NCBI GenBank assembly: GCA_001777665.1
Contig: MFEQ01000006.1
Location: 213,442 to 277,441 of the forward strand
Source: Candidatus Doudnabacteria bacterium RIFCSPHIGHO2_02_FULL_42_25
Lineage (GTDB): Bacteria > Patescibacteriota > Doudnabacteria > UBA920 > O2-02-FULL-48-8
Length of the DNA stretch: 64,000 nucleotides
Direction: 5' to 3'
Positions within the stretch are counted from its first letter, which is position 1, and every line of letters starts with the position of its first letter. Below are positions 2,065 through 57,346 of this stretch, piece after piece. The notes under the pieces are model-generated. The model searched no databases. It was not told the DNA's origin and was given only the letters and a program-made list of their open reading frames with translations. Position numbers and translations under genes: made by a program.

Positions 2065-3735
2065 CTATTTAACTATTTCTTGCTTTTCTACTTTTTGATC
2101 TTTAGTCAGATCAAAGACGGAACTTGATAATTTCGAGTTTAGTGGGATGGTGAAGATAAAACTGGAACCCTTTCCTTCACCTTTTGATTCGACCCAAATT
2201 TTACCTTTATGTTGTGCGATAATAACTTTCGCGACATAAAGACCCAGGCCCAACCCTGTGGAATTTTTCGGTGCTCTGTTTCCTCGGTCATATTTCTCAA
2301 ACACATGACTCATCTGATCCTTGGAGACTCCCCGACCAGTATCAGTGACTTTCAGGGTAATTTCCTTATCGTTTTTCGATATCGAAACCGTGACCTTGCC
2401 AGCTGGGGTATATTTAATGGCATTATCAACTAAATTATTTATAACCTGCCGTAATTTTTCTTTATCAGCAGTGAGTTCAGGCATAGCTTCTTTAGGTTTT
2501 TCGTAGACTAATTCGATTTTCTTCATTTCAGCCTGGGGTAATAACTGATCCACAGTGATCTGGGTAATTTCAGCTAAGTTCGTAGGTTGAAATATAAATT
2601 CCAATTTTCCTCGTTCGATACGAGAGGCATTAAGTAAATCATCTATAAGGGCCACCATGGAATTATTCGTCATCATGGTTTTCCGTAACTGTTCATGAAC
2701 AGATGGATCCATCTTTCCATAATCACCATCGAGAATAGACGCCAGATACCACTTGATGGTTGCGGGTGGAGTTCGAAGTTGATGTGAAGCAATCGTAATA
2801 AAGTCCGCCCTCGCTTTATCCAAAATCTTCAACTTCTCATTCGCCGCCTCTAATTGTTTGTCCAAAATCTCAAGCTGTTGGCGCTGCTTAACTTCTCTAT
2901 TGACACCACGTACCAGAAGAATTCCGACTATCGAAGTTCCTATCAACACAAGAAAATTTGTTACATATTGCCCGACGGAAGTAGTGTTAACTAGTTGAAT
3001 AACGAGAATCAAATTCAACAAAATAACAGCCAGCTCAGCCAAGAGAGCTTTGATGTTTAATAATTTATGTCTAATCATTGCGTAAACTGTAAAAAGTACA
3101 AAAGGTAATGTATAAATATGGCCGAAATTAACATATTTGGTCTGATCGGTCACTACAGCAAGAATAAAATTAAAAGTTAATACAAGGACAAAGGTTAAAA
3201 ACAAACCTATTCCGATGAGCCTCCACTGAATTCGCTCTATCCCCTTTGCAAAATGCCAAGATTTAACTATATGAACAAAAGCTAAAATTATAAAAGTAAA
3301 TGCATAGATCCCGAACAGAGCCATTCCAATTCCTGCGATGGGTGTGATTATGCCATTTTTAACTTCCGTATGAGTAAATAAAAACGGCGATCTTGCTAGC
3401 AAAACAAAAATACCTACTAAAATAACTAAACTCCAAGAATAACTTCTACTGATTATATCTTTTTTATTCAAGAAAGAATGAATAAAAAGAAAAAATAGTA
3501 TTGGATGCGGTACCGCAGCGGCAATTGTCCATCGTGCCATACTTAGAATAGTATCCGGGTTACTACGTGCCGCAAAATAGTTAACCATTATCCAAATCGT
3601 CTGTGATAGTCCAAACAAAATAAATAATAACCTGCTTCGATCTTTCGGTGCATAACGGAACACAATCAATACCAAAGTAACATTGGCAATCAATGCTGTT
3701 ACAAATACAGGAAATTCTAATTCTACTAGATTCAT
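2065..3735 (-). CDS. sensor histidine kinase with N-terminal 7TM domain
   Basis: About seven N-terminal TM helices. HisKA H-box IASHQLRTPPATIKW. HATPase_c motifs NLVDNAIKYT, DTGRGV and GLGLGLYVAK. A 4-bp overlap with the upstream gene indicates an operon. Confidence 0.85.
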   Translation of the reverse strand: MNLVELEFPVFVTALIANVTLVLIVFRYAPKDRSRLLFILFGLSQTIWIMVNYFAARSNPDTILSMARWTIAAAVPHPILFFLFIHSFLNKKDIISRSYSWSLVILVGIFVLLARSPFLFTHTEVKNGIITPIAGIGMALFGIYAFTFIILAFVHIVKSWHFAKGIERIQWRLIGIGLFLTFVLVLTFNFILAVVTDQTKYVNFGHIYTLPFVLFTVYAMIRHKLLNIKALLAELAVILLNLILVIQLVNTTSVGQYVTNFLVLIGTSIVGILLVRGVNREVKQRQQLEILDKQLEAANEKLKILDKARADFITIASHQLRTPPATIKWYLASILDGDYGKMDPSVHEQLRKTMMTNNSMVALIDDLLNASRIERGKLEFIFQPTNLAEITQITVDQLLPQAEMKKIELVYEKPKEAMPELTADKEKLRQVINNLVDNAIKYTPAGKVTVSISKNDKEITLKVTDTGRGVSKDQMSHVFEKYDRGNRAPKNSTGLGLGLYVAKVIIAQHKGKIWVESKGEGKGSSFIFTIPLNSKLSSSVFDLTKDQKVEKQEIVK

Positions 3736-4793
3736 ATATTGCCGATTATTACTGGTGATCTTTTAATTGACCCGGCTGATGGTGGGTCAGCATAGCCAAG
3801 TCGAAAAATCATTATAGGGATCTCATCCGAAGACAGAGAAAAAATTTGACGAATCTTATTTTCGGCGTTTTTGATTAAATCCATCTGTTTGGGCAAAAAT
3901 TCGCTCGTATCTCCACCGTTTATTCGCTGGGCTAAAAATAAAATTGCCGCCACTGGCTGCATACTTAAACCAAGTCCAGTGCCAGTCAACCAAACTCTTT
4001 GAAAAAACCTACCAGCTAATATAAGCTGATCTTCACTAAGCCCAGCTGTTGCGATAATTCCGTAAGCCGGGGTAGATGCATAGAGCTTTGCAGAATCTTT
4101 GGAAACCATTTTTGACACGCCGAAATGATTCAAAAAATTAATTATTTGCCAATTTCTAAAAAGTTTAAAAGCCTTTTCTTGAAGTGGAGCTAATTCTAGA
4201 GTCTTAATATACATTCCATTTTTGGTTTTATCTTCATCTGTTTTTGACCATCGGATATATTTAAATAATCCATCATGAATTTTTTTATTTTCAAGTATAA
4301 GTCTCTCATTTAGATTTAGTGTACTACTTAACGCTTTTATTGCTACCGGGTCTTCCAAAATAAAATATTTTTTTATATTGTTTTCTCTCGGTACATTCAA
4401 TAAAATATTTAAATCCTCAGGCGGAATGGACTTACTTAGATATGGCTTCCGGTTGGTCACCCGTAGTGGAATTTGCTTTGCTTGGTTACTATCTCTTTTA
4501 TCACTAGGCAAGAACGTTACCTCGGCAATCAGTCCCGAAATGTTTTCTTCGGGGAATAATTTTATGGCAGTTTCAAAACCTGTAACGCCTGCTAAAATTT
4601 TAATATTTTCTATTAGTGCACCAATCCCTATATAAGAGCCTCTTTCTTCAAAGTTATAAAAGCTATCGTCAGCACCAAAAACGATATAGACAAAAACTCC
4701 ATTATCTTTCAATTTGAACTTCCATGGTTGAGAATTATCACCGGAAGGGGCCAACACAGCTTGATTTAATATTTGTTTTATAATTTCTCTCAT
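3732..4793 (-). CDS. nitroreductase-superfamily protein with duplicated domain (SagB/Acg-like)
   Basis: N-terminal APSGDNSQPW motif typical of nitroreductase/SagB-type FMN enzymes. The approx 350-aa length is consistent with a tandem nitroreductase fold. Confidence 0.65.
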   Translation of the reverse strand: MREIIKQILNQAVLAPSGDNSQPWKFKLKDNGVFVYIVFGADDSFYNFEERGSYIGIGALIENIKILAGVTGFETAIKLFPEENISGLIAEVTFLPSDKRDSNQAKQIPLRVTNRKPYLSKSIPPEDLNILLNVPRENNIKKYFILEDPVAIKALSSTLNLNERLILENKKIHDGLFKYIRWSKTDEDKTKNGMYIKTLELAPLQEKAFKLFRNWQIINFLNHFGVSKMVSKDSAKLYASTPAYGIIATAGLSEDQLILAGRFFQRVWLTGTGLGLSMQPVAAILFLAQRINGGDTSEFLPKQMDLIKNAENKIRQIFSLSSDEIPIMIFRLGYADPPSAGSIKRSPVIIGNI

Positions 4794-4794
4794 T

Positions 4795-6231
4795 TTATGT
4801 AAGAACCATCCTGGCTTTTTTGCCCTTCGTATTTAATAATCCAGCAATTTTTCCTGTTTCAGCTAATCTACCATATGGTTCTAGTTTTACTTGGGGTTGC
4901 GCCTTGGTACCGATTGCAGAATATAGTTTCCGATATTCGATACTTAATTCACTCAATTTTGAAGAAATAGTATCGACAATTAAATTTAACATTCTTGGAT
5001 TCGCTTTAGTTTTCTCTGCCAACTCCAGTTTTAGGTGGAGCTTTTGATTTTTTTGATTTTTTGAATTTTGATTATAAGCCAAATAATTACCAGTTAAATA
5101 TTTCGAAATCTTTCTATCTTCAAGACTTGTTTGTAAATTTTCAGGATAAACGTTTATTGCATAAAAAGTCACAGCGACATCAGTACGACCTTTTTTTACA
5201 AAAAAAGGCATCTTCCAAAATTGGAGGCCGTGTTCCTTGGCCTTATTAAGCAAACCTAGCTTTTTAAGTTTGTCTTGCATTTCATTATAAGGAATAATAG
5301 CCCCTTGATCATGAATATTGTATCTAATTAATGGGATGCTGGTTTTTGTTGTAATCAACAACTCATCATTCACTACTTCGAAATATGTAAGATATGGATC
5401 GTATTGCATCAAAGCCGGCTCGACTACTTCTTGCTCAAAAACTTGTTTATACAAAGCTGGGTTCTTCAGAGCTTCTTCACGGATATAAATACTGATTGGG
5501 GTTTCATGTCCTAACGCCCCGGTGTCCGCAGAACCATAGATACTTATAATATTTTTTTTAGAATTGATTCCGAGTAAATCAAGTAGACTCCGACGCCATT
5601 CTTCCGTAAATTTATCCCCCGCCGTAATGACAAAAGTATTTTTAGAAAACTTTATTTTTGCCTTCCTTGCATCATTGACTATGTCCATAACAAATGGAGG
5701 ATAACCTGCAATTACTATGTTTTTGAAATGAGGTCCGAGTATTCGCAAAGAATTAATTATATCGATTTTTTCAATTCCTGGTGTAATTGTGGATAAATTA
5801 AATCCTTTTCTAGAAAGATTTCTGCAACAAGCCAGAGTATAATTGCCTGCCACCCAAAGTCCCATAGCAAAACAAATAACTACCAAGGTCGAATCGTCTT
5901 TTTTTATCCTAAAAATATCAGTAAAAATCTTTTCATGAAATTTTCCCCCAATCTTCTCTTGATCATCACCACGGAACCAGAAAGTCGGCTTGCCGGATGA
6001 ACCTGAACTAGCGTAAATCATTGGAGCAATTTTATCTTTAGAAAAAAAACGATTAAAAGGATATTGATAAAGATAATTTTTCTTTTCCATTATCGGAACC
6101 TGCTCAAATTCTCTATGACTTTTCACCTTTGAGGGATTGAAATGATGGCGAGAAATAAAATCTTTGTAAGACGGTACCTCTTTGGCAGCATCTCTAAAAA
6201 TTCTTATTGCATTTTTTAATCCTTGTCTCAT
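4795..6231 (-). CDS. adenylate-forming enzyme, phenylacetate-CoA ligase (PaaK/CapK/F390 synthetase) family
   Basis: AMP-binding P-loop-like SSGSSGKPT. Length and overall architecture fit the PaaK family. Packed tightly between neighbours. Confidence 0.7.
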   Translation of the reverse strand: MRQGLKNAIRIFRDAAKEVPSYKDFISRHHFNPSKVKSHREFEQVPIMEKKNYLYQYPFNRFFSKDKIAPMIYASSGSSGKPTFWFRGDDQEKIGGKFHEKIFTDIFRIKKDDSTLVVICFAMGLWVAGNYTLACCRNLSRKGFNLSTITPGIEKIDIINSLRILGPHFKNIVIAGYPPFVMDIVNDARKAKIKFSKNTFVITAGDKFTEEWRRSLLDLLGINSKKNIISIYGSADTGALGHETPISIYIREEALKNPALYKQVFEQEVVEPALMQYDPYLTYFEVVNDELLITTKTSIPLIRYNIHDQGAIIPYNEMQDKLKKLGLLNKAKEHGLQFWKMPFFVKKGRTDVAVTFYAINVYPENLQTSLEDRKISKYLTGNYLAYNQNSKNQKNQKLHLKLELAEKTKANPRMLNLIVDTISSKLSELSIEYRKLYSAIGTKAQPQVKLEPYGRLAETGKIAGLLNTKGKKARMVLT

Positions 6232-6234
6232 TTG

Positions 6235-7323
6235 TTATTTAAATTGAGATCTGAATAGTTCTGTTTTTTGTTTCCTAACTTCTCGATTCTTTTCATTATT
6301 ATAATCTGGTATTAATTTCTCCTCGAGACTTATTTGATATCGCCCAGATGGCATGATTTGATGATTGGCAATCTTTCGTACGACGTATCCTACAGCAGCA
6401 CCTGCGACATTTGCGGTTGAACCAAGTTGCGGCACGGCCGAAATACTCTTACCTATTTCAGAAACAGATTCCTGCATACTCTCACTTAAAAATTCAGGAC
6501 CAACAATTTTAGTTGCTAGTTTCAACCATGAGTGAAAATCAAGTTTTGTTACCTGTTCTAGGGTAATATCCACCAAACCATGGAAGATCGGACGCTCGGG
6601 CTCCAAATCGAATCTTTCCACATCGAGTATAACACCGTCACCGTTATCCGTAGCCATAAGTACAGGAATTTTTCTATTTTTGCAATAAAACCGTGCCAAT
6701 ATCTTTAAATCGATGCTATCCATCTCATCAATAAAAACTTCAATTTTCGGATTACCTAGAAATTCTAGTAGGTTATCTTTGGTTAAACCCTTACTGTAAA
6801 CATTTAATTCTGCGAAAGGATCAAGTTCCCAAATCCAGTCTGCTGCGATTTCTGTTTTATTGCGCCCCAAATCAAGCAAATTTGAATTTATTCTGTTTAA
6901 ATTCGTAAATTCTAAATTATCATAATCAGCAATGCTCATGGTCTTTGGACCACCAGTCCTAACCAAGGCATTTATAATCGATGAGCCGACCGAAAGACCT
7001 GCAACACCAACTTTAATATTTCGAAAATTTGTCTGTTCCTCAGAAGTAATAACTAATTTATTTCGAGCAGTTCTTAACTGAAAATAATAGTCTTCAGGTA
7101 AAATGTGTATAGCTTTTTTATGATCGGAATAATACACCCAAATTCCCTGTATTTTATTCTCCGTTAAAAAATTATCTAAAGCGTCTTGGTATCCTGAATA
7201 GCTTTTTTTGTATTGAGGATTTTGAACAAAAAATAATTCTTCCAATCCAGATGAAAAAACATCGATTATTTCTGCATCTTTTGGAACTTCTGATCTACTA
7301 TTGTAAAATTTCGGTTGCCCCAT
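6235..7323 (-). CDS. ThiF/MoeB/HesA-family E1-like protein
   Basis: Rossmann motif VGVAGLSVGSSIINAL after an approx 100-aa N-terminal domain. E1-like size. Confidence 0.65.
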   Translation of the reverse strand: MGQPKFYNSRSEVPKDAEIIDVFSSGLEELFFVQNPQYKKSYSGYQDALDNFLTENKIQGIWVYYSDHKKAIHILPEDYYFQLRTARNKLVITSEEQTNFRNIKVGVAGLSVGSSIINALVRTGGPKTMSIADYDNLEFTNLNRINSNLLDLGRNKTEIAADWIWELDPFAELNVYSKGLTKDNLLEFLGNPKIEVFIDEMDSIDLKILARFYCKNRKIPVLMATDNGDGVILDVERFDLEPERPIFHGLVDITLEQVTKLDFHSWLKLATKIVGPEFLSESMQESVSEIGKSISAVPQLGSTANVAGAAVGYVVRKIANHQIMPSGRYQISLEEKLIPDYNNEKNREVRKQKTELFRSQFK

Positions 7324-16200: not shown

Positions 16201-16802
16201 CTAATTAAATAAAGTTCTCCCGTAAATGATGAATTGAAATAATTATCTGTATATAGCTTATCAGCTCCTTTGCGATTAATTCGTTCGATATACGGAATAT
16301 TTACAGACCAACCATAAGAAAATACACTTCCTTCATCGTTAGACTGACTGCTGTATACCAATGCAACATCTGGTTGAAGCCCGTTTCGGCCAGGAGGAAT
16401 AGTTAATGGGTATTGATAATTTAATGAACCATTCACTTCACTAACTTGTGGGAGTTTTTGGCCTGCAACAGTGTTCTTACCTGAGTCAGGACCAGGACTC
16501 GAGGCCAAAAGATTAGTTGCTTCAGGATCGGAATCTTTGCCTTTATCCTTATCTTTGATAGGTTTGGGATCTTTATTATTTTCTGAAAAATCTTTCTCAT
16601 CCTTAAGCTGCTTATCCTCATTAGTTTCTGATTTTTTATTTTGTTCGGGTTCTGGTTCCGAAGATATCTCAGATGCGGATTGATCTACTTCCTTAATGGG
16701 TTCAATCGGCAACTCGGATTCTGCAGCGAAAACGGGAGTAAAGGGCGTAATGAGAATAAAGAATGCCACCACTATCGCAACCAGACTTTTGGAGTTAGTC
16801 AT
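10233..16802 (-). CDS. RHS/YD-repeat polymorphic toxin (2189 aa) with signal peptide, FG-GAP-like DxNGDG repeats, YD repeats, RHS core and a variable C-terminal toxin domain
   Basis: Signal peptide MTNSKSLVAIVVAFFILITPF. Repeats DVNGDGLNDIL and DLNGDGLVDVI. Many YxYDxxGN(L/I) YD repeats. RHS core ...GRFISQDPVF...NPLAYIDPDGH, followed by an approx 205-aa tail. Confidence 0.85.
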   Translation of the reverse strand: MTNSKSLVAIVVAFFILITPFTPVFAAESELPIEPIKEVDQSASEISSEPEPEQNKKSETNEDKQLKDEKDFSENNKDPKPIKDKDKGKDSDPEATNLLASSPGPDSGKNTVAGQKLPQVSEVNGSLNYQYPLTIPPGRNGLQPDVALVYSSQSNDEGSVFSYGWSVNIPYIERINRKGADKLYTDNYFNSSFTGELYLISGSSWGSKVDNGEFLTYDLTDNVWTVKDKKGTAYKFGTNAAERQDSGSNIYKWMLQEVRDRNENYIKYEYTKDAGQIYPYKITYTGNGSTDGIFVIEFLKESRSDSTISYKPGFSVTTSYRIYEIQAKISDTWARKWALAYTAADNGRRYVLNTITETGQDESSNTVSLPVTDFDYQITNNNGSSNYNSNDTNWTYPVPFSEVYIADVNGDAYPDILHSYGSTKTAYLNDQDGTWTTSASYQPPIQFFDSSGVDQGVRIADVNGDGLNDILQATVGVNKAYLNTGSGWSADNSTWYSPIPFGPSSSGDSYTSQLADLNGDGLVDVIRGYDNNGTIVDDVYLNNGAGWTSVNWIVPVDLKLGVFIIDINNDGLADLLRGWQNGQTQYKEAYLGNGAGWTSNNTSWAPPMVFRSNVDEGVRPFDFNGDGLIDLSKFIGGGTPVSYYNNGYGWTQTGTNWGAVEEFVTSSNGETGTQAVDINADGMVDLIRAYSSNGVVSSTRFNNRNKADLTNKITYPSAGTTAVIYKASARYVSGSTLLNPSARINLDTVYQLTNDDKVNSTYTTSYSYESGSYYFNTSFDRQFAGFNIINKTNAAGQVTKTYYHQGNTTDSSNGEYSDHISKVGKLYRSEMKDGSSNIYLKTVNKWDKYDLGNSRNFVKLVRTTELTYDGDADHKDKTEEYTYSNTTGNLSQKIEWGEVTGSDDGAYTDTGTDKFTTDFSYVANATYYIYAYPSQETTVDQSSNKVKETKYSYDSRGNLTQQENWKAGSSYVSIQKNYDPTFGLITTDIDPRGKATSYVYDTNNLYPATVTNALNQSTSYVYDYSLGKPKQITDINSRVFQSVYDGLDRVIAEKQPDLTDPQTIVVKTEYVYTDTPGAVSSKKTDYLDNSNAVDTYTYYDGLNRPVQIRKETEDNNVYSVADTVYNNLGQVYKQSLPYFSNGFSKTSVNTNPNLLTLHTYDPMQRVVSVTNAVGTSSNIYNDQKFTVIDPKGKIKNLYKDAYGNLVKVEEFNSGNTYTTHYDYNYLGNLTKITDASGNIRNFSYDGLGRRIGSEDLHNPTDTTFGLWSYIYDDSSNLISSTNPNNQQVEYTYDDINRRLTENYIGQAGTEVTYNYDSGIDGIGRLTSVQSSGANTDYLYNPLGGLKQEAKTISSTSYQTDYNYDRQGNLLEVTNPDNSKIKYAYNQGGQLETIKRKEATDGSFVNVVSDLDYGPHGQVTYQAYANGPVTSNIYDSTKLYRLTNKNTTAANGLKLQNLSYTYDPNGNITRIVDGSDTNSSKTVDYTYDDLNRLMSTAATNVAAGQSTYGQTYSYDAIGNILTRAETIGINPTTIYTYAYDGSSGSRYANPHAVTSISDGTNTTTFSYDSNGNMITEGNKNYVYDYNNRLIQASLAGGSNTTTTFSVQSGDGNVYKNYSTWSGVHDATSGSGQSYTSTTMPVQAGKTNNSTYRIERAFLAFNTSALPDNTSIVDAKLKVYVHGKTNPDNDGDDWVTVVQGSQASPTSLVLNDYDNAGAITNPTEGIDTSERKDITNVSTNAYLTLNLNNTGKGWISKTGNTLLALREGHDVINSSYTGGKGGNQLTLRSSEYSGTAFDPVLEVTYANQTTINYAYDHEGQRVRSSNGSISTDYPTGFYNTDGTVPTKHIVSPTTQTVATVKGVGASASVYSVHTDHLTGSNVVTNNTGLQEELMDYFPFGGIRLDQKQGTFSEQRKFAGHEYDVDTGLSYMNARYYNSSIGRFISQDPVFIGLGSGQIEVLSDPQLLNSYSYARNNPLAYIDPDGHLPRSLVNAVNFLDKYNPVHYLYGESFDDIAEGLFDGDWGRVGRGVKDTTLTTANVIATSLEIGMTAGTIYTMGAGVAATKVATTGRAKEINNLIRTLDKVLDTKSKSSVIVPLRSTTKTSAFDRAAEHAIIKNHYPGLSKQEISNIAKKTFESFDIKVNIKGIKKYYYDSKNNNLFINNPKQPTLFQPKNGLEYLKDTIKKDINR
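10236..10852 (-). other. variable C-terminal toxin tip of the RHS protein (after the DPDGH motif), unknown family, glycine-zipper-like segment
   Basis: Sequence downstream of the PLAYIDPDGH cleavage/demarcation motif. Contains GMTAGTIYTMGAGVAATKVATTG. AT-richer than the body of the gene. Confidence 0.5.
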
Positions 16803-16822
16803 AAATAAAATATTAATTATGC

Positions 16823-16863
16823 ACTAACGCTAGCATTGATAGGATTGTTGTCAATATTTGACA
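16823..16863 (-). promoter_or_regulatory. conserved promoter-like element (TTGACA-N17-TAGCGT on minus strand) upstream of the RHS gene; second copy at 26988..27027
   Basis: A roughly 40-bp block with about 75% identity to 26988..27027. Both copies lie 20-45 bp upstream of the start codon of a giant secreted-protein gene. Confidence 0.5.
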
Positions 16864-22109: not shown

Positions 22110-22558
22110 TGTATTCTCCTGTTTATAGCAAAGCTTCGCGGAAAGGATTAATTATTCATATGAGACAATCAATCTTATTCCGGAACAATCCTATAAACAT
22201 TGTTTAATTTTTGGAACTAAGCATTAACAGACAAAAAAACTAAGATCGACCAGCAAAAAGCTCAAAGCTATTTGCCAAGACTTAATTCCAATTTATAAGA
22301 CGACCGCCTAATGGGTATGTTACAACCCATTAAACCCTCATTAAAATACTGTGGACGAATCAATAACAACCCCAAATTAAAACTCCCACAACTTAAGTTT
22401 TGTGGAGGTCACTAAGGATTAATAATTTCTTTGTTCACGAAGGATTTCATTGAGTAACAGCATTATGGAGTAACTTTATGTTTTTGTCAAGCTAAAAAAT
22501 AACTAATTTTATTGTATATAAACTTGAACCTGCTTATATAGTATGATATGATAGTTAT

Positions 22559-23323
22559 ATGACCAACAGCAATTTAAAACTTAAAGCAATAAATTTGAGG
22601 CAGGAAGGTTGGTCCTATAATATGATTTCTGAAAAAATAGGAGTAGCTAAAAGTACCCTTAGTAATTGGCTAGCGGAAATACCCTATAACCCCAGCGCAG
22701 AAGCAATCAAAAGAATTAAACAAGGACCTGCCAAATCTGCTGTTTTGAGACACAATATAAAGCTCCAAAACATAAAAGATATAAAAGCTCAGGCAGCTGC
22801 AGAATTAAAAAAAATTACTAAACGCGATCTTTGGATGATGGGGATTGGGTTATATATCGGTGAAGGATCTAAGGTTCATGAATATACAAGAATCGTGAAT
22901 TCTGATCCGAACATTGTTAAGCTTGCAATTAGATGGTTCCGGGAAATTTGTAAAGTACCATTAAAAAATTTTTTACTAACTGTCCATATTTATCCCAATA
23001 TTTCCGTATTGGAAGCAGTTGACTACTGGTCAACAACAACAGGTGTTCCTAAACACCAATTCGGGCAAACGCAAATCGACAAAAGGTTAAATAAAACAGC
23101 AAAAAAACAGAATCTGTTGCCTTTTGGCACAATTCATATTAGTATTAGAAGCTGTGGAGACCCTAATTTCGGTGTTGCTCTCCACAGAAAGATTATGGGC
23201 TGGATTGAAGCAGCTTATCAAGTGCGCGGGCATCGTATAGTGGCAATACCTCAGGTTTCCAACCTGATGCCGGGAGTTCGATTCTCCCTGCCCGCTCCAG
23301 AAAAGCAAAGAAGATTATTTTAA
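22559..23323 (+). CDS. HTH-domain protein with LAGLIDADG-like motif (putative homing-endonuclease-like); 3' end reads through tRNA-Gly
   Basis: N-terminal HTH GWSYNMISEKIGVAKSTLSNWL. The motif LWMMGIGLYIGEGSK resembles LAGLIDADG. The last approx 30 codons are the tRNA-Gly sequence. Confidence 0.4.
   Translation: MTNSNLKLKAINLRQEGWSYNMISEKIGVAKSTLSNWLAEIPYNPSAEAIKRIKQGPAKSAVLRHNIKLQNIKDIKAQAAAELKKITKRDLWMMGIGLYIGEGSKVHEYTRIVNSDPNIVKLAIRWFREICKVPLKNFLLTVHIYPNISVLEAVDYWSTTTGVPKHQFGQTQIDKRLNKTAKKQNLLPFGTIHISIRSCGDPNFGVALHRKIMGWIEAAYQVRGHRIVAIPQVSNLMPGVRFSLPAPEKQRRLF
23226..23299 (+). tRNA. tRNA-Gly (anticodon UCC)
   Basis: Manual fold: acceptor GCGGGCA/TGCCCGC, D-arm GTAT-AGTGGCA-ATAC, anticodon stem TCAGG/CCTGA with loop TTTCCAA, T-arm GGGAG-TTCGATT-CTCCC, discriminator U, CCA encoded. 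Confidence 0.85.
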
Positions 23324-23339
23324 AGCCCCTGAGGGCTTT

Positions 23340-23930
23340 TTAGTTACCCACAAGTTTTCCAGAGGCAAAAACTTCGATCAAAGCGGCGATGAAAAGTACT
23401 AATGCTATCGCCGGAAGACAAACGATCGCGCGAATTAAATTATTTTTCAGGACCTCTCCCCTATGGCCTTTTGATTCTTGCCGTAACCATTCGGTTCCGA
23501 ACCGAAGACCGAGGGCGGCGGCAATCAAAACCGCTGGCAACTCAAAAATTCCATGCGGAACTAACCCAGTGACGATAATCAGCACTCCGGAAAGAACATT
23601 TGTCAGGGAAAACATGGAAACAATCACAAAGCCAATCAAAAAACCATTCACAACCACTACCACGAATGGCCCCAAGCCCAAAATCAACCCCCCAAACAAA
23701 GCGATTAAAGACGCGATAATGTTTTGGGAAAATATTTGGAGAGCAAAAGCAAAATTCAAATCTGGATTCTCACCAAACCTATCAGCGAACTCCTTTAGTA
23801 TCACCTGCAATAAGTCGGGTTTGATAAAAAAAGTGATACCACCAAAAATCGCCGCTAATAAAAACCAGTTAGTAACTAGTTTCAACCAGTGGCGATTTTC
23901 GGAAAACAAATTGCGATAAAATTGTATCAT
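23340..23930 (-). CDS. SpoIIM/DUF95-family membrane protein
   Basis: Motif IFSQNIIASLIALFGGLILGLGPFVVVVVNGFLIG typical of the stage II sporulation protein M family. Multi-TM. Confidence 0.55.
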   Translation of the reverse strand: MIQFYRNLFSENRHWLKLVTNWFLLAAIFGGITFFIKPDLLQVILKEFADRFGENPDLNFAFALQIFSQNIIASLIALFGGLILGLGPFVVVVVNGFLIGFVIVSMFSLTNVLSGVLIIVTGLVPHGIFELPAVLIAAALGLRFGTEWLRQESKGHRGEVLKNNLIRAIVCLPAIALVLFIAALIEVFASGKLVGN

Positions 23931-23940
23931 TTATATTGCT

Positions 23941-24066
23941 AGCGAGGATTAAATTTTTGGACGCTTTGCGTATTTCTTCAGAAATCGCAACGCGAGTAAA
24001 AATCTACTTTCAAGTACATAACAAACTGCAGATTTTTAAGTTCACAAAAATTTCAATCCGAGCGTT
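23941..24066. repeat. approx 126-bp direct repeat copy A (about 90% identical to 32206..32331), immediately 3' of tRNA-Pro; contains imperfect palindrome TTGCGTATTTC-N3-GAAATCGCAA
   Basis: Long near-identical block, with a 60-bp core ggacgctttgcgtatttc...caaactgcagattttta that is identical in both copies. Confidence 0.8.
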
Positions 24067-24069
24067 TCC

Positions 24070-24143
24070 TGGTCGGGGTGCTGGGAATTGAACCCAGTCT
24101 ATCTGCTCCCAAAGCAGACGTACTACCGGTATACTACACCCCG
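24070..24143 (-). tRNA. tRNA-Pro (anticodon UGG)
   Basis: Manual fold of the reverse complement: acceptor CGGGGTG/CACCCCG, anticodon stem TCTGC/GCAGA with loop TTTGGGA (G37), T-arm CTGGG-TTCAATT-CCCAG, discriminator A, CCA encoded. Confidence 0.85.
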
Positions 24144-24225
24144 TCGTATAAATTCACTTTGGCATTATATTCGAATTTCACTTAGAACTCAAGTATCCAG
24201 TTCTGTCCATACTAAAAAATTAGTA

Positions 24226-24256
24226 AAAAATGTGTAATTACACATTTTTTACGACT
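24226..24256. repeat. palindrome AAAAATGTGTAATTACACATTTTT plus TACGACT; downstream copy of the 24-bp direct repeat flanking the PaaX_C-like gene (other copy 24948..24971)
   Basis: Perfect 24-bp palindrome. The 24-mer tgtaattacacattttttacgact is identical at both gene ends. Confidence 0.8.
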
Positions 24257-24932
24257 AGATAATACTCTTATCTTTGAAGAATTGGTTGAGCTTTTCTTCA
24301 TCATCAGCATCTAATTTGGCAGCTTCGGCTACTGTCACAAAGTTTTCGATTTCATAATACACTGCGACGAACTCAATCTGATCAGTTGGTTTATAGGGAT
24401 AAACCCAAACTGTCCTTTGCAGCGGATAAAAATTCATTAACTTAAGCTTTTCTCGAAATAAATCTGCCCGTCTCCGATAAGGATTTGAAGGAATATCAGC
24501 CAGTACAAACCACCAATGCTTGCGCAAACGCGAGGTTTGCGGGATAGTTAGATTTTCAAAATTTAATCGTCTTACTTTATCCTCTCCTTTTTTCGTAATC
24601 TTCATAACATAGTCCTCCCCTTCTCTCATCAATTGAATATAACCATATCTTTTCAAATAATAAAAAGACTTAACAATATCCTTTTGACGTTTTTCAAATC
24701 GCTGTTTCCTGTCATAGCCGCTATAACCATAACGTTGGATTTTTCCTAACGCACTTAGTAGATTAGGGGCGATGACTGCTATAGCTACTGTTCCGGCGAG
24801 AATACCTGTCGCGAGCACAACCTCTGCCGCAGTTTTCAACATCGCTACTTGCTGATCGCTAAGCTTGGGTTTCTTGGAGGCAGTGCTCTTTCGTATCAAC
24901 TGCGATATATTTATATCCTGCTTAATTCGCAT
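24255..24932 (-). CDS. membrane-anchored PaaX_C/Cas2-fold domain protein (paralog 1 of 3), putative regulator
   Basis: N-terminal TM helix, basic wHTH-like middle region, C-terminal RKHWWFVLADIPS...FREKL...FYPLQRTVWVYPY matching the PaaX C-terminal/Cas2-like signature. 60% identical to 56669..57346. Confidence 0.5.
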   Translation of the reverse strand: MRIKQDINISQLIRKSTASKKPKLSDQQVAMLKTAAEVVLATGILAGTVAIAVIAPNLLSALGKIQRYGYSGYDRKQRFEKRQKDIVKSFYYLKRYGYIQLMREGEDYVMKITKKGEDKVRRLNFENLTIPQTSRLRKHWWFVLADIPSNPYRRRADLFREKLKLMNFYPLQRTVWVYPYKPTDQIEFVAVYYEIENFVTVAEAAKLDADDEEKLNQFFKDKSII

Positions 24933-24947
24933 TATTCGTATCTTGGA

Positions 24948-24971
24948 TGTAATTACACATTTTTTACGACT
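24948..24971. repeat. upstream copy of the 24-bp repeat (TGTAATTACA core) flanking the PaaX_C-like gene
   Basis: Identical 24-mer to 24233..24256. Confidence 0.8.
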
Positions 24972-25001
24972 AAAAAGTTATTACTTGATAATTTATTTGA
25001 A

Positions 25002-25289: not shown

Positions 25290-26983
25290 TTTAGCAACTC
25301 CTTTCGGTTCATTAATCTGATTAAAATATAGCAAATTATTGCACCTAAGACAAAACCCACGGCAAACCATGGCCAGATGGGATTTTGTTTGGTAATAACC
25401 AGAGGTGTTGGATTTGATTCCTGCACTGCTGCCACTATCCCACTACTGATCTCTGGTTGAGATTCTGTAATTTCTTCTTCTATTGCTGGAATATCCAAAT
25501 ACTCTTCTTCAGCAGCTTCTTCTTCCACCTCCACGATCTCGACTTTTTCAGCAATTTGATTGTCCTGACCTGGTGTCGCCATGATAGACCATTCAAACTC
25601 ATCATCTGTTCTGCTATATGATTGCGCTTTTGGCGCATCTTCGTATTTGACCAGATCCACTATTTCCCCGTTGGGATTGATCAGAGATACTTTCTCCTCG
25701 CCATAATTGTTGAGCGCGATTTTACTTTCAGACTTCAAGATAAAAATATATCCGTGCGGTAAAATTAAAAGTTCAGGCAATTTATATTTCCGGCTACTAT
25801 CCGCTATCACCCAATCTTTAAGAACGACTTCGGCATCGGAATCATTATGCAATTCGATAAACTCCTCTTCTCCCTTCGCAGGAGAAGGATATATTTCGCT
25901 GATTCGGATGTCTTCGCTATAAGTTTCTACAGGTTCTTCCTCGAGATTTAAACCCACGACTTGACCCTCACTAGCATCTGTATAATTAAACGAGTCAATC
26001 ATGATTCGATTAGAGTCAAACAATCGGATGGTTTCTTCACCACTGTTATTCAGAGCAAATTTGCCAGTCGGAATCAAAATCTGGACTGAAACTTGTGCGG
26101 CTAAAATTTGTGCTGGCAGTTTATAATGATTTTTCCCAATCTCGGTATCTATCTCACCATCATCCAAAATCGAATTCATCAGGTCAATCGTCTGGTTGGT
26201 GGTATTGGTTAACTCGACCCACTCGTATCCAGAATCAGATCCTTTTGGGTTTGGTAATGCCTGGGTAATTTTGATAGCACCTGGAACGATAATCACAGGC
26301 GATGCTACCGGTCCTCCTCCGCTCTGAGTCGGAGTTGGCGGAGGAGGTGAAGGTAGAGGTGTCGGCTCTGGATCAGGTTCTTCCACTGGCGGTGGTAGAG
26401 GTTGGGGTGGCGGAGTCGTACTCGGAACAGTTAGAGTATTGCGAGGATTAGGGGTACTAATTATAAAATCCGCAGCATTGTTATCAGTGTCTTCGTTGCG
26501 AATCAGAACTTCGCCCATAGCTGGATTGATCGGAAATACGGAACCTTCAACGAATGCATTCGAAGCCGATCCCCAACCCACACTATCAACAATTGTCCCG
26601 GTATCGTTGCTTCCCAGACGAAGCGCTATGCCATTATTATCCGCAATCGAGGCCGAAGTTGTCGCATCAGGAACTATTCCAATATCTACAAAATCTGCAT
26701 TCGCCCAAAGATAGTAGCCACCCGCGGGCACAATCGCAGATTCAGTCCAGGATTTGATAGATGTGTCCGAAGTTCCCGTCTCTGTGCGTTTGACCAGCCT
26801 CATACCCATCAAATCAATATCGCTCCCGGTGGGATTATGAATTTCGATAAAATCGTTAGTTGTTTTCCCCGCCCCACCTGTTGTTTGGACCTGACTGATC
26901 ACCAAATGGTCGACAGTGACAGCAGAAGCAGTTCTCGGAAACAAAAAAGTAAAAGCCCCGATCAATAAAATTATTTTTTTCAT
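25286..26983 (-). CDS. lamin-tail-domain (LTD) surface protein with signal peptide and C-terminal TM anchor
   Basis: Three LTD-like modules (NDFIEIHNPTGSDIDLMGMRL, YEWVELTNTTNQTIDL, EEFIELHNDSDAEVVLKDW). Pro-rich linker. C-terminal helix IWPWFAVGFVLGAIICYILI. Confidence 0.6.
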   Translation of the reverse strand: MKKIILLIGAFTFLFPRTASAVTVDHLVISQVQTTGGAGKTTNDFIEIHNPTGSDIDLMGMRLVKRTETGTSDTSIKSWTESAIVPAGGYYLWANADFVDIGIVPDATTSASIADNNGIALRLGSNDTGTIVDSVGWGSASNAFVEGSVFPINPAMGEVLIRNEDTDNNAADFIISTPNPRNTLTVPSTTPPPQPLPPPVEEPDPEPTPLPSPPPPTPTQSGGGPVASPVIIVPGAIKITQALPNPKGSDSGYEWVELTNTTNQTIDLMNSILDDGEIDTEIGKNHYKLPAQILAAQVSVQILIPTGKFALNNSGEETIRLFDSNRIMIDSFNYTDASEGQVVGLNLEEEPVETYSEDIRISEIYPSPAKGEEEFIELHNDSDAEVVLKDWVIADSSRKYKLPELLILPHGYIFILKSESKIALNNYGEEKVSLINPNGEIVDLVKYEDAPKAQSYSRTDDEFEWSIMATPGQDNQIAEKVEIVEVEEEAAEEEYLDIPAIEEEITESQPEISSGIVAAVQESNPTPLVITKQNPIWPWFAVGFVLGAIICYILIRLMNRKELLK

Positions 26984-26987
26984 GCCC

Positions 26988-27027
26988 TAACGCTAGCATT
27001 GGACAACTTGTTGTCAACATTAAACGC
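26988..27027 (-). promoter_or_regulatory. second copy of the conserved promoter-like element (TTGACA-N16/17-TAGCGT) upstream of the LTD protein gene
   Basis: ctaacgctagcattg...ttgttgtcaa block shared with 16823..16863. Confidence 0.5.
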
Positions 27028-32205: not shown

Positions 32206-32331
32206 AGCGAGGAACAAATTTTAGGACGCTTTGCGTATTTCATAAGAAATCGCAACGCGAGTAAAAATCTACTTTCAAGTACATAACAAACTGCAGATTT
32301 TTACGTTCACTAAAATTTCGTTCCGAGCGTT
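32206..32331. repeat. approx 126-bp direct repeat copy B (pair of 23941..24066)
   Basis: About 90% identity over approx 126 bp with copy A. Confidence 0.8.
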
Positions 32332-56668: not shown

Positions 56669-57346
56669 TTAAATTAACTCTGCTGCTTTGAAAAATTTTG
56701 TTAATTTTTCTTCGTCGTCCGGATTTAATTTAGATATTTCCATCACGGTCACAAACTGCTCTATTCCATAATACACCGATATAAACTCAACTTGATCAAT
56801 TGGGTTATATGGATAAACCCAAACAGTTCTTTGCAGCGGATAAAAATTCATCGTTTGAAGTTTTTCCCGAAACAAATCCGCGTGATGCCGATACTCTTTC
56901 GATGGAATATCAGCCAAAACAACCCACCAATGCTTGCGCCACCGACTGTCGCGTGGGATTTCTAAATAATCAAAATTCATTCGCCAAATTTTTTCTTGCC
57001 CTTTTTTCGTTACAGTCATGACGTATTCATCTCCTTCTTTCATCAACTGAACGTAACCATAACGTTTAAGATAATAAAAAGATCTAACTAAAACCTTTTG
57101 ACGTTTCTGAAACCGTTCCTTTCGATCAATCCCATGGTAGGAATATTTTGCAATTTTACCTATGGCATTCAATAAATTTGGCGCGATAGCAGCTATGGTA
57201 ACAACTCCAGCAACTGCTGCCAAAGCCAAAATGGCTTCCCCTGCTGTTTTCAATACCGCAATTTGTTTGTCATTCAGAGTAGGTTTTTTGGATACAGTGC
57301 TATTTTTTATAACAGCCGCAAAAGCAATTTGGTCTTTTATCCTCAT
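56669..57346 (-). CDS. membrane-anchored PaaX_C/Cas2-fold domain protein (paralog 3 of 3)
   Basis: 60% identical to 24255..24932. AT-rich codon usage inside a GC-rich block. Confidence 0.5.
   Translation of the reverse strand: MRIKDQIAFAAVIKNSTVSKKPTLNDKQIAVLKTAGEAILALAAVAGVVTIAAIAPNLLNAIGKIAKYSYHGIDRKERFQKRQKVLVRSFYYLKRYGYVQLMKEGDEYVMTVTKKGQEKIWRMNFDYLEIPRDSRWRKHWWVVLADIPSKEYRHHADLFREKLQTMNFYPLQRTVWVYPYNPIDQVEFISVYYGIEQFVTVMEISKLNPDDEEKLTKFFKAAELI

Follow-up and report, generated by a model that had tools for sequence, protein, structure and literature searches.

Why should a protein-coding frame run without a stop through an intact transfer RNA (tRNA) gene, and what might its protein do there? 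The question is raised by an open reading frame (ORF) at positions 22,559 to 23,323 of a stretch of 64,000 nucleotides (nt) from Candidatus Doudnabacteria bacterium RIFCSPHIGHO2_02_FULL_42_25 (contig MFEQ01000006.1, positions 213,442 to 277,441), which we call the window. A sequence-only reading had described the frame as encoding 254 amino acids (aa), with an N-terminal helix-turn-helix (HTH), and as passing through an intact tRNA-Gly(UCC), a description with which the coordinates, ARAGORN and the Pfam family HTH_3 all agree. The explanation towards which we lean, with moderate confidence, is that the gene belongs to an ancient free-standing LAGLIDADG homing-endonuclease lineage that colonised the tRNA 5′ leaders of the candidate phyla radiation (CPR, or Patescibacteria), and that it is now stably inherited, driven by the tRNA promoter and active on the DNA of its own locus by cleavage, autorepression or both. 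The features of the locus are the following.

22559..23323, plus strand: ORF, ATG start, 254 aa, TAA at 23321-23323
22559..23224, plus strand: conserved coding part, residues 1-222 (HTH plus LAGLIDADG-like protein), delimited by homologs and alignments
22577..22720, plus strand: N-terminal HTH DNA-binding domain, about residues 7-54
22811..23224, plus strand: predicted single LAGLIDADG-type domain, about residues 85-222
22829..22873, plus strand: LAGLIDADG-like helix and motif LWMMGIGLYIGEGSK, residues 91-105
22862-22864 and 22871-22873, plus strand: codons of E102 and K105
23225..23323, plus strand: apparently fortuitous C-terminal tail, residues 223-254, being the tRNA and 21 nt beyond it, in frame to the TAA
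23226..23299, plus strand: tRNA-Gly(UCC), intact, CCA end encoded (ARAGORN; Rfam RF00005, 61.1 bits)
22524..22552, plus strand: promoter-like site TTGAAC-17 nt-(TG)TATGAT (promoter scan; putative function)
23322..23345, plus strand: tentative terminator-like hairpin AAGCCCC/GGGGCUU with a U-run (RNA fold)
24070..24143, minus strand: tRNA-Pro(UGG) (ARAGORN)

The end of the protein and the tRNA behind it

tRNA-Gly(UCC) starts at base two of codon 223, and no stop interrupts the frame before the TAA 21 nt past the tRNA. A random frame would remain open across the 74-nt tRNA, or about 25 codons, with a probability of roughly 0.3, so that the read-through alone is not above chance. The flush juxtaposition of ORF and tRNA is far beyond chance, as it recurs throughout the related loci. 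We fetched 80 such loci, the Gly loci, from one-genome-per-species assemblies; 79 were usable, and tRNA-Gly(UCC) lies directly 3′ of the family ORF on the same strand in 78 of these. All of the fetched loci come from metagenome-assembled genomes of CPR/Patescibacteria, spread over many candidate phyla (Staskawicz-, Moran-, Doudna-, Wolfe-, Yanofsky-, Nealson-, Harrison-, Specht-, Berkel- and Howlettbacteria, and Saccharibacteria).

The homologs show where the protein proper ends. A large protein database holds 554 relatives, nearly all 221-227 aa long and covering about 85% of the query, and they therefore end where the tRNA starts in the window. In 76 of the 78 tRNA-Gly-linked loci the end of the stop codon falls in the interval from 26 nt ahead of the tRNA to 15 nt into it, and all three frames relative to the tRNA occur; the stop is a TAG or TAA of the tRNA's own D-arm in 28 Gly loci, and lies inside the tRNA in about one third to two thirds of loci. 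Complete read-through as in the window is found in only one related Gly locus, L027. The tail itself (residues 226-254) is predicted by AlphaFold to be disordered, with a predicted local distance difference test (pLDDT) score below 50. Since the stops of the relatives vary in position across all three frames and the tail is predicted to be disordered, the 32-codon extension is, judged by these comparisons, a reading-frame accident with no apparent protein function, and the overlap follows trivially from how tightly gene and tRNA are joined. The suggestion of the sequence-only reading that the last 30 or so codons are fortuitous thus holds up. The opposite idea, that the full 254-aa product and its tRNA-encoded tail are functional and that the overlap is an adaptive dual-coding region, could point to a similar long tail in two close relatives, P0002 and P0003 (66-70% identical), the only homologs to share it, but such similarity is expected when a conserved tRNA is translated in the same frame, as it seems to be in both. 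With the scattered stops of the relatives, the predicted disorder and a conserved protein that ends at about residue 222 in every subfamily also standing against it, we regard dual coding as effectively refuted and give it next to no credence. At the other extreme, a merely spurious open frame is ruled out by thousands of conserved homologs.

The linkage to a tRNA extends well beyond glycine. An exhaustive profile search over 1.84 billion representatives, clustered at 50% identity, returned 3,099 clusters at E<=1e-10 and only 284 at E<=1e-30, and the Gly-linked group is therefore one branch of a far larger superfamily, apparently confined to CPR/Patescibacteria. The C-terminal peptides of many distant members turn out to be translated tRNA 5′ ends, and all nine distant representatives that we examined abut a tRNA: Pro(UGG) for P0199, Gln(UUG) for both P0241 and P0239, Ile(UAU) for P0265, Lys(CUU) for P0252, Arg(UCU) for P0206, Glu(CUC) for P0244 (read through as in the window), the 5′ exon of an Asn(GUU)-like tRNA split by a group I intron for P0192, and an Arg-like tRNA for P0165, which runs into it at the end of the contig. 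The intron-containing tRNA beside P0192 is of a type already described (PMC13011429). A metagenome scan with a six-sequence alignment of the P0241 group gave 80 loci, each with one family member; 72 had enough downstream sequence, and in every one of these the ORF is directly followed by tRNA-Gln(UUG); relative to the tRNA, the stop ranges from -45 to +22 nt and is most commonly at +15.

Two side observations concern introns. In locus L087 (3654-3940) an Asn(GUU)-like tRNA, missed by ARAGORN, has a family ORF ending in its 5′ exon, and the Rfam family Intron_gpI matches there with 61 bits (3676-3902). In locus L088 (131-361) a group I intron (72 bits) lies between tRNA-Ala and a Pro-linked ORF, probably inside an undetected tRNA.

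The fold of the conserved protein

At its N-terminus the window protein carries an HTH of the DNA-binding transposase/XRE type. Pfam HTH_3 matches residues 13-53 with an E-value of 1.7e-5 and 25.2 bits against a gathering cut-off of 23, which identifies an XRE-type HTH in the first 54 residues only, rather than an XRE-type protein over its whole length. A full-length structural model was uninformative for the C-terminal part, and residues 80-222 were modelled on a 120-sequence alignment, with a pLDDT of 89.4 and a predicted template modelling score of 0.83. In this model a long first helix (residues 88-102) ends exactly at G101-E102-G103, so that E102 takes the place of the acidic metal-binding residue with which the first helix of a LAGLIDADG domain ends. 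When the model was used for a fold search, 10 of the top 13 matches belonged to the WhiA/LAGLIDADG group, including WhiA (score 7.4), I-Tsp061I, I-CeuI and the TliVMA intein endonuclease domain (6.8), I-DmoI (6.5, root-mean-square deviation 2.4), E-DreI (6.3), PI-PfuI (5.9), I-Vdi141I (5.8) and I-CvuI (5.3).

At the level of sequence the family profile matches I-DmoI at E 0.02-0.04, and phmmer aligns GLYIGEGSKvheytRIvNsdpnivklaiRW with GLYVAEGDKtlkrlRIwNknkalleivsRW of I-DmoI, pairing E102 with I-DmoI E117 and K105 with I-DmoI K120. Catalysis by I-DmoI requires D20 and E117, and its transition state is stabilised by K42 and K120; in WhiA all four of these residues are lost and DNA cleavage is impossible (PMC3384342). 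Within the family, 97 mutually diverse representatives keep E102 in 90% and K105 in 87% of cases; neither G101 nor G103 varies in the family alignments, and K105, whose conservation reaches 87-100% of members, corresponds to the basic active-site residue of the I-DmoI K120 / I-CreI K98 class. Together these comparisons support a C-terminal domain of predicted LAGLIDADG-type fold that keeps a catalytic-type Glu and Lys, and the LAGLIDADG-like motif that the sequence-only reading had pointed out is borne out by the fold matches, the I-DmoI alignment and the conservation of both residues. A single domain of this kind implies a homodimer, and the family protein is presumably homodimeric.

Profile searches with the existing families are silent on this domain: Pfam LAGLIDADG_1, _2 and _3 do not match the window protein at E<=10, and no LAGLIDADG family stands among the 25 most-matched Pfam families listed for the 120 members scanned. 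A weak signal for alanyl-tRNA synthetase was seen as PF01411 in 19 of the 120 members (residues 118-194, E>=0.005) and as fragments in the fold searches, and was rejected as a local helix-strand-helix resemblance that falls far under the gathering score and ranks below the LAGLIDADG matches.

Among known enzymes, the family resembles the single-domain LAGLIDADG endonucleases (I-CreI, I-CeuI, I-Vdi141I and I-ShaI of a CPR ribosomal RNA (rRNA) intron) and domain 2 of I-DmoI in its single domain, with the homodimer that this implies, and in its host clade, since active single-domain LAGLIDADG enzymes are abundant within the CPR's rRNA genes (PMC11270868). It differs from them in adding an N-terminal HTH and a long linker helix, in lacking a Pfam LAGLIDADG match, in its residence outside introns and inteins, in tRNA 5′ leaders rather than in rRNA or protein genes, and in being unusually well conserved. 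Indeed, an Rfam scan found no intron at the window locus, where the gene is free-standing and the tRNA intact. The ORF has a GC content of 33-36% against 45-50% for the upstream gene, which we count towards an origin as an endonuclease element.

A gene between promoter and tRNA: possible cutting or repression, and inheritance

The promoter-like site of the window ends 6 nt before the ATG, and no Shine-Dalgarno sequence lies ahead of the ORF. The same anatomy recurs in the Gly loci: in 34 of 79 the distance from the end of a -10-like hexamer to the start codon is 4-9 nt, and in 29 it is exactly 6 nt, compared with 8% of shuffled sequences; these counts follow a strict criterion and would be higher by eye. 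A Shine-Dalgarno-like motif is seen in only two of the 79. The ORF-tRNA spacing in these loci ranges from overlap up to about 26 nt, with aligned junctions that are coding sequence, and therefore leaves no room for a separate tRNA promoter, while those tRNAs of the fetched loci that have no such ORF before them are typically served by TTGACA/TATAAT promoters 10-20 nt upstream. A promoter at 6 nt from the ATG points to a leaderless mRNA, and with the promoter flush against the start codon and no Shine-Dalgarno sequence the ORF would in effect be the 5′ leader of the pre-tRNA. The hairpin after the window tRNA, which would close the unit of promoter, ORF and tRNA, is weak (dG, the folding free energy, -10.2 kcal/mol; z -1.4), is common to the convergent SpoIIM-like gene and was not called by a terminator scan of the window.

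Some details of these promoters stand apart. The -35 hexamer of the family ORF promoters (L001-L080) is TTGAAC, and that of unoccupied tRNA genes in the same loci mostly TTGACA or TTGTCA. The only locus in which a Gly-type ORF is uncoupled from its tRNA is L077 (ORF 4989-5648; tRNA 6298-6372): a HIT-like gene intervenes, and the tRNA-Gly(UCC) is inverted and has its own TGGTATAAT -10 box 10 nt upstream. In the L077 copy, Tyr replaces the otherwise invariant His209. The L077 junction of promoter and tRNA-Gly is a candidate empty site, at which the protein would cut if it is a homing endonuclease.

We propose a model that builds on what is established for this family, namely its anatomy, conservation, fold, retained catalytic-type residues and linkage to tRNA, and from which we infer co-transcription, separation by RNase P, leaderless translation, dimerisation, and cleavage or repression. 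A gene of about 222 codons, in which an HTH is fused to a single LAGLIDADG-type domain of a presumably homodimeric protein, would fill the 5′ leader of the tRNA-Gly(UCC) unit. A sigma-70-type promoter 6 nt before the ATG would give rise to a leaderless mRNA, in which the coding sequence reaches the first base of the tRNA and the putative hairpin follows the tRNA. RNase P, by cutting at the tRNA 5′ end, would free the tRNA from the ORF, and where the stop codon lies inside the tRNA this processing would leave a non-stop mRNA, which could act as a built-in brake on expression. Such a unit would have arisen when a homing-endonuclease lineage settled at the promoter-tRNA junctions of conserved tRNA genes and borrowed their promoter, its inheritance now being probably for the most part vertical. 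The protein would recognise DNA at the cognate tRNA locus and cut alleles that lack the gene, repress its own promoter, or do both.

No description of an ORF as tRNA leader was found in the searchable literature, and a wider proposal, which is possible but which we make only tentatively, is that we are looking at an undescribed class of element. Catalytically competent HTH-LAGLIDADG proteins would then occur CPR-wide as pre-tRNA 5′ leaders, expressed as leaderless mRNA-tRNA chimeras with one tRNA gene per lineage, RNase P would strip the in-tRNA stops, output would be coupled to pre-tRNA processing and rescue by transfer-messenger RNA, and an endonuclease-repressor would maintain or guard the locus. 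A parallel in arrangement is SegB of phage T4 (background in PMC13096335 and PMC2988022), which shares with our family a free-standing homing-endonuclease gene among tRNA genes, expressed from the surrounding transcription unit. SegB is, however, a GIY-YIG enzyme of a phage genome, whereas the family is LAGLIDADG-type, chromosomal, CPR-specific and placed exactly between promoter and tRNA 5′ end; the window protein has no GIY-YIG match and no phage or viral relatives.

A protein tied to its tRNA in cis might also act on RNA. LAGLIDADG maturases are an established class, and by analogy the family protein could bind its own pre-tRNA transcript in cis and aid its folding, processing or splicing, an idea favoured by the obligatory cis arrangement with a tRNA in all subfamilies and by one member (L087) that lies directly upstream of a tRNA carrying a group I intron. 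We consider this improbable, as most partner tRNAs (Gly, Gln, Pro, Ile, Lys, Arg and Glu) are intron-free, the HTH is of a type that binds DNA, and a maturase has no need of nuclease residues.

The choice between cleavage and repression is closer, and the Gln-linked loci (L096-L175) bear on it. In these an inverted repeat, GAACnAnGnT ... AnCnTnGTTC, with arms of about 10 bp and placed about 45 nt upstream of the ORF start, brackets the -10 box; its spacer is fixed at 21 nt and contains TATAAT, it ends 0-5 nt before the ATG, and it measures about 41 bp overall. The arms covary between loci. At that position about half of 71 unique loci show a perfect repeat of 7 bp or more, compared with 11% of shuffled sequences at any position. 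The palindrome resembles the operator of a homodimer and is a candidate for one. A precedent for both activities in one protein is I-TevI, which cuts its homing site and represses its own promoter through an operator; the combination of intact active-site residues and a promoter palindrome in our family matches this, although I-TevI, a GIY-YIG enzyme encoded in an intron, has its HTH at the C-terminus and is not linked to a tRNA.

Several observations weigh against an active homing endonuclease. The Gln palindrome speaks for operator binding, and hence a regulatory role, no less than for cleavage. In 403 locus pairs with shared flanking genes, the identity of the ORF is about that of its flanks (mean difference +1.1 +/- 11 points), and where a pair shares 4-13 flanking genes, the divergence of the ORF equals or exceeds that of its neighbours. 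No family relatives turned up in searches among viral contigs, phages or plasmids. Finally, the classical homing cycle predicts frequent decay, and pseudogenes are rare here, with about four of 160 copies damaged by a frameshift or in-frame stop (L080, L075, L112 and possibly L028). No recent mobility of the family is visible, and the mobile-DNA hot spot that the sequence-only reading had seen at this locus is not borne out, there being no sign of recent transfer, no phage or plasmid copies and nearly always intact genes. The damaged copies, which could be pseudogenes, assembly errors or cases of recoding, have in-frame stops at 5469-5471 (L075) and 2939-2941 (L112), a frameshift at about 5107-5117 (L080) and a possible one in a run of nine A's at about 175-190 (L028).

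These points are accommodated by the main rival to our explanation, a domesticated, non-cutting protein like WhiA that sits as a homodimer on a palindromic promoter operator, (auto)regulates its tRNA unit and has long been immobile. WhiA/DUF199 is itself a domesticated LAGLIDADG plus HTH transcription factor of Gram-positive bacteria, but it has two tandem degenerate LAGLIDADG domains followed by a C-terminal HTH where our family has one domain and an N-terminal HTH, it is without tRNA-gene linkage, and it has lost the equivalents of E102 and K105, which about 90% of diverse family members keep. It is not evident why a plain regulator should directly abut the 5′ end of eight different tRNA genes, the Gly-type promoter of the window lacks the right arm of the palindrome, and nothing accounts for a need of such a regulator at only some tRNAs in some genomes. 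For these reasons we think such a regulator unlikely, although it is the most serious of the competing explanations. The sequence-only reading had set against a homing endonuclease the prospect of an ordinary regulator, conserved with its overlapping tRNA in all relatives. Conservation of the ORF with its tRNA is indeed what we find in essentially all relatives, but the protein does not look like an ordinary regulator, because it retains the nuclease residues and because the tRNA partner differs in other subfamilies.

An origin as an endonuclease element, which our preferred explanation requires, is favoured by the retained active-site residues, by subfamilies that each keep to one tRNA at identical insertion geometry, and by the coexistence of occupied and empty tRNAs. 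For the same tRNA species occupancy varies at deep distances, with one Pro(UGG) occupied and 41 empty and four Arg(UCU) occupied and 23 empty, in a sample that is biased. Another kind of mobile DNA, an integrative element that uses the tRNA as attachment site, was rejected, as the ORF lies on the 5′ side of the tRNA, with no integrase and no direct repeat of a tRNA fragment. PADLOC and PHROGs searches gave matches at the level of the HTH only.

The arrangement is unexpected in its hosts, as CPR/Patescibacteria have tiny, streamlined genomes and yet carry thousands of versions of this gene wedged exactly between a promoter and the first base of a tRNA. If our explanation is true, tRNA 5′ leaders are a new habitat for LAGLIDADG homing-endonuclease genes, beside the rRNA and tRNA introns known in CPR, and the family provides a natural protein-coding pre-tRNA leader that links the fate of an mRNA mechanically to tRNA processing. 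Meganuclease engineering would then also have an interest in the family, as a set of compact and varied enzymes of about 220 aa whose recognition sites, at highly conserved tRNA loci, may be long. For annotation, family genes are now labelled 'helix-turn-helix domain-containing protein' or 'hypothetical', and gene callers often extend their 3′ ends into the tRNA.

The surroundings of the locus

Upstream of the ORF, the intergenic stretch at positions 22110-22558 is unusually long, at about 450 nt, and rich in AT, at about 30% GC, and no RNA family matches it at E<=1. Many relatives have a tRNA-Pro(UGG) 26-115 nt ahead of the family ORF and on its strand; the window has it on the other side and on the other strand, and the locus has therefore been rearranged. 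The sequence-only reading had placed this tRNA-Pro and a 126-bp repeat in the neighbourhood of the ORF. Both exist, but the repeat adjoins tRNA-Pro and not the ORF. Its two direct copies (23941-24066 and 32206-32331, 93% identical) are 8 kb apart, and the first takes up the space that separates the start of the SpoIIM-like gene (minus strand, 23930) from the 3′ end of tRNA-Pro(UGG). The repeat may be a shared 5′ untranslated region, promoter or small RNA, and is no part of the ORF-tRNA-Gly unit.

Further repeats occur in the window. An exact 25-nt repeat (24233-24257 and 24948-24972) with the palindrome TGTAATTACA, of which an inverted arm lies at 24223-24242, flanks both ends of a PaaX_M-like gene (24255-24932, minus strand) and looks like an operator pair or terminator elements. 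A 300-nt direct repeat (24272-24571 and 56686-56985, 73% identity) has one copy inside the PaaX-like gene and suggests a paralogous gene about 32 kb away. Finally, a 60-nt repeat (16799-16858 and 26962-27021, 72% identical), with the core CTAACGCTAGCATTG...TTGTTGTCAA, lies at gene starts and may be a shared promoter or operator.
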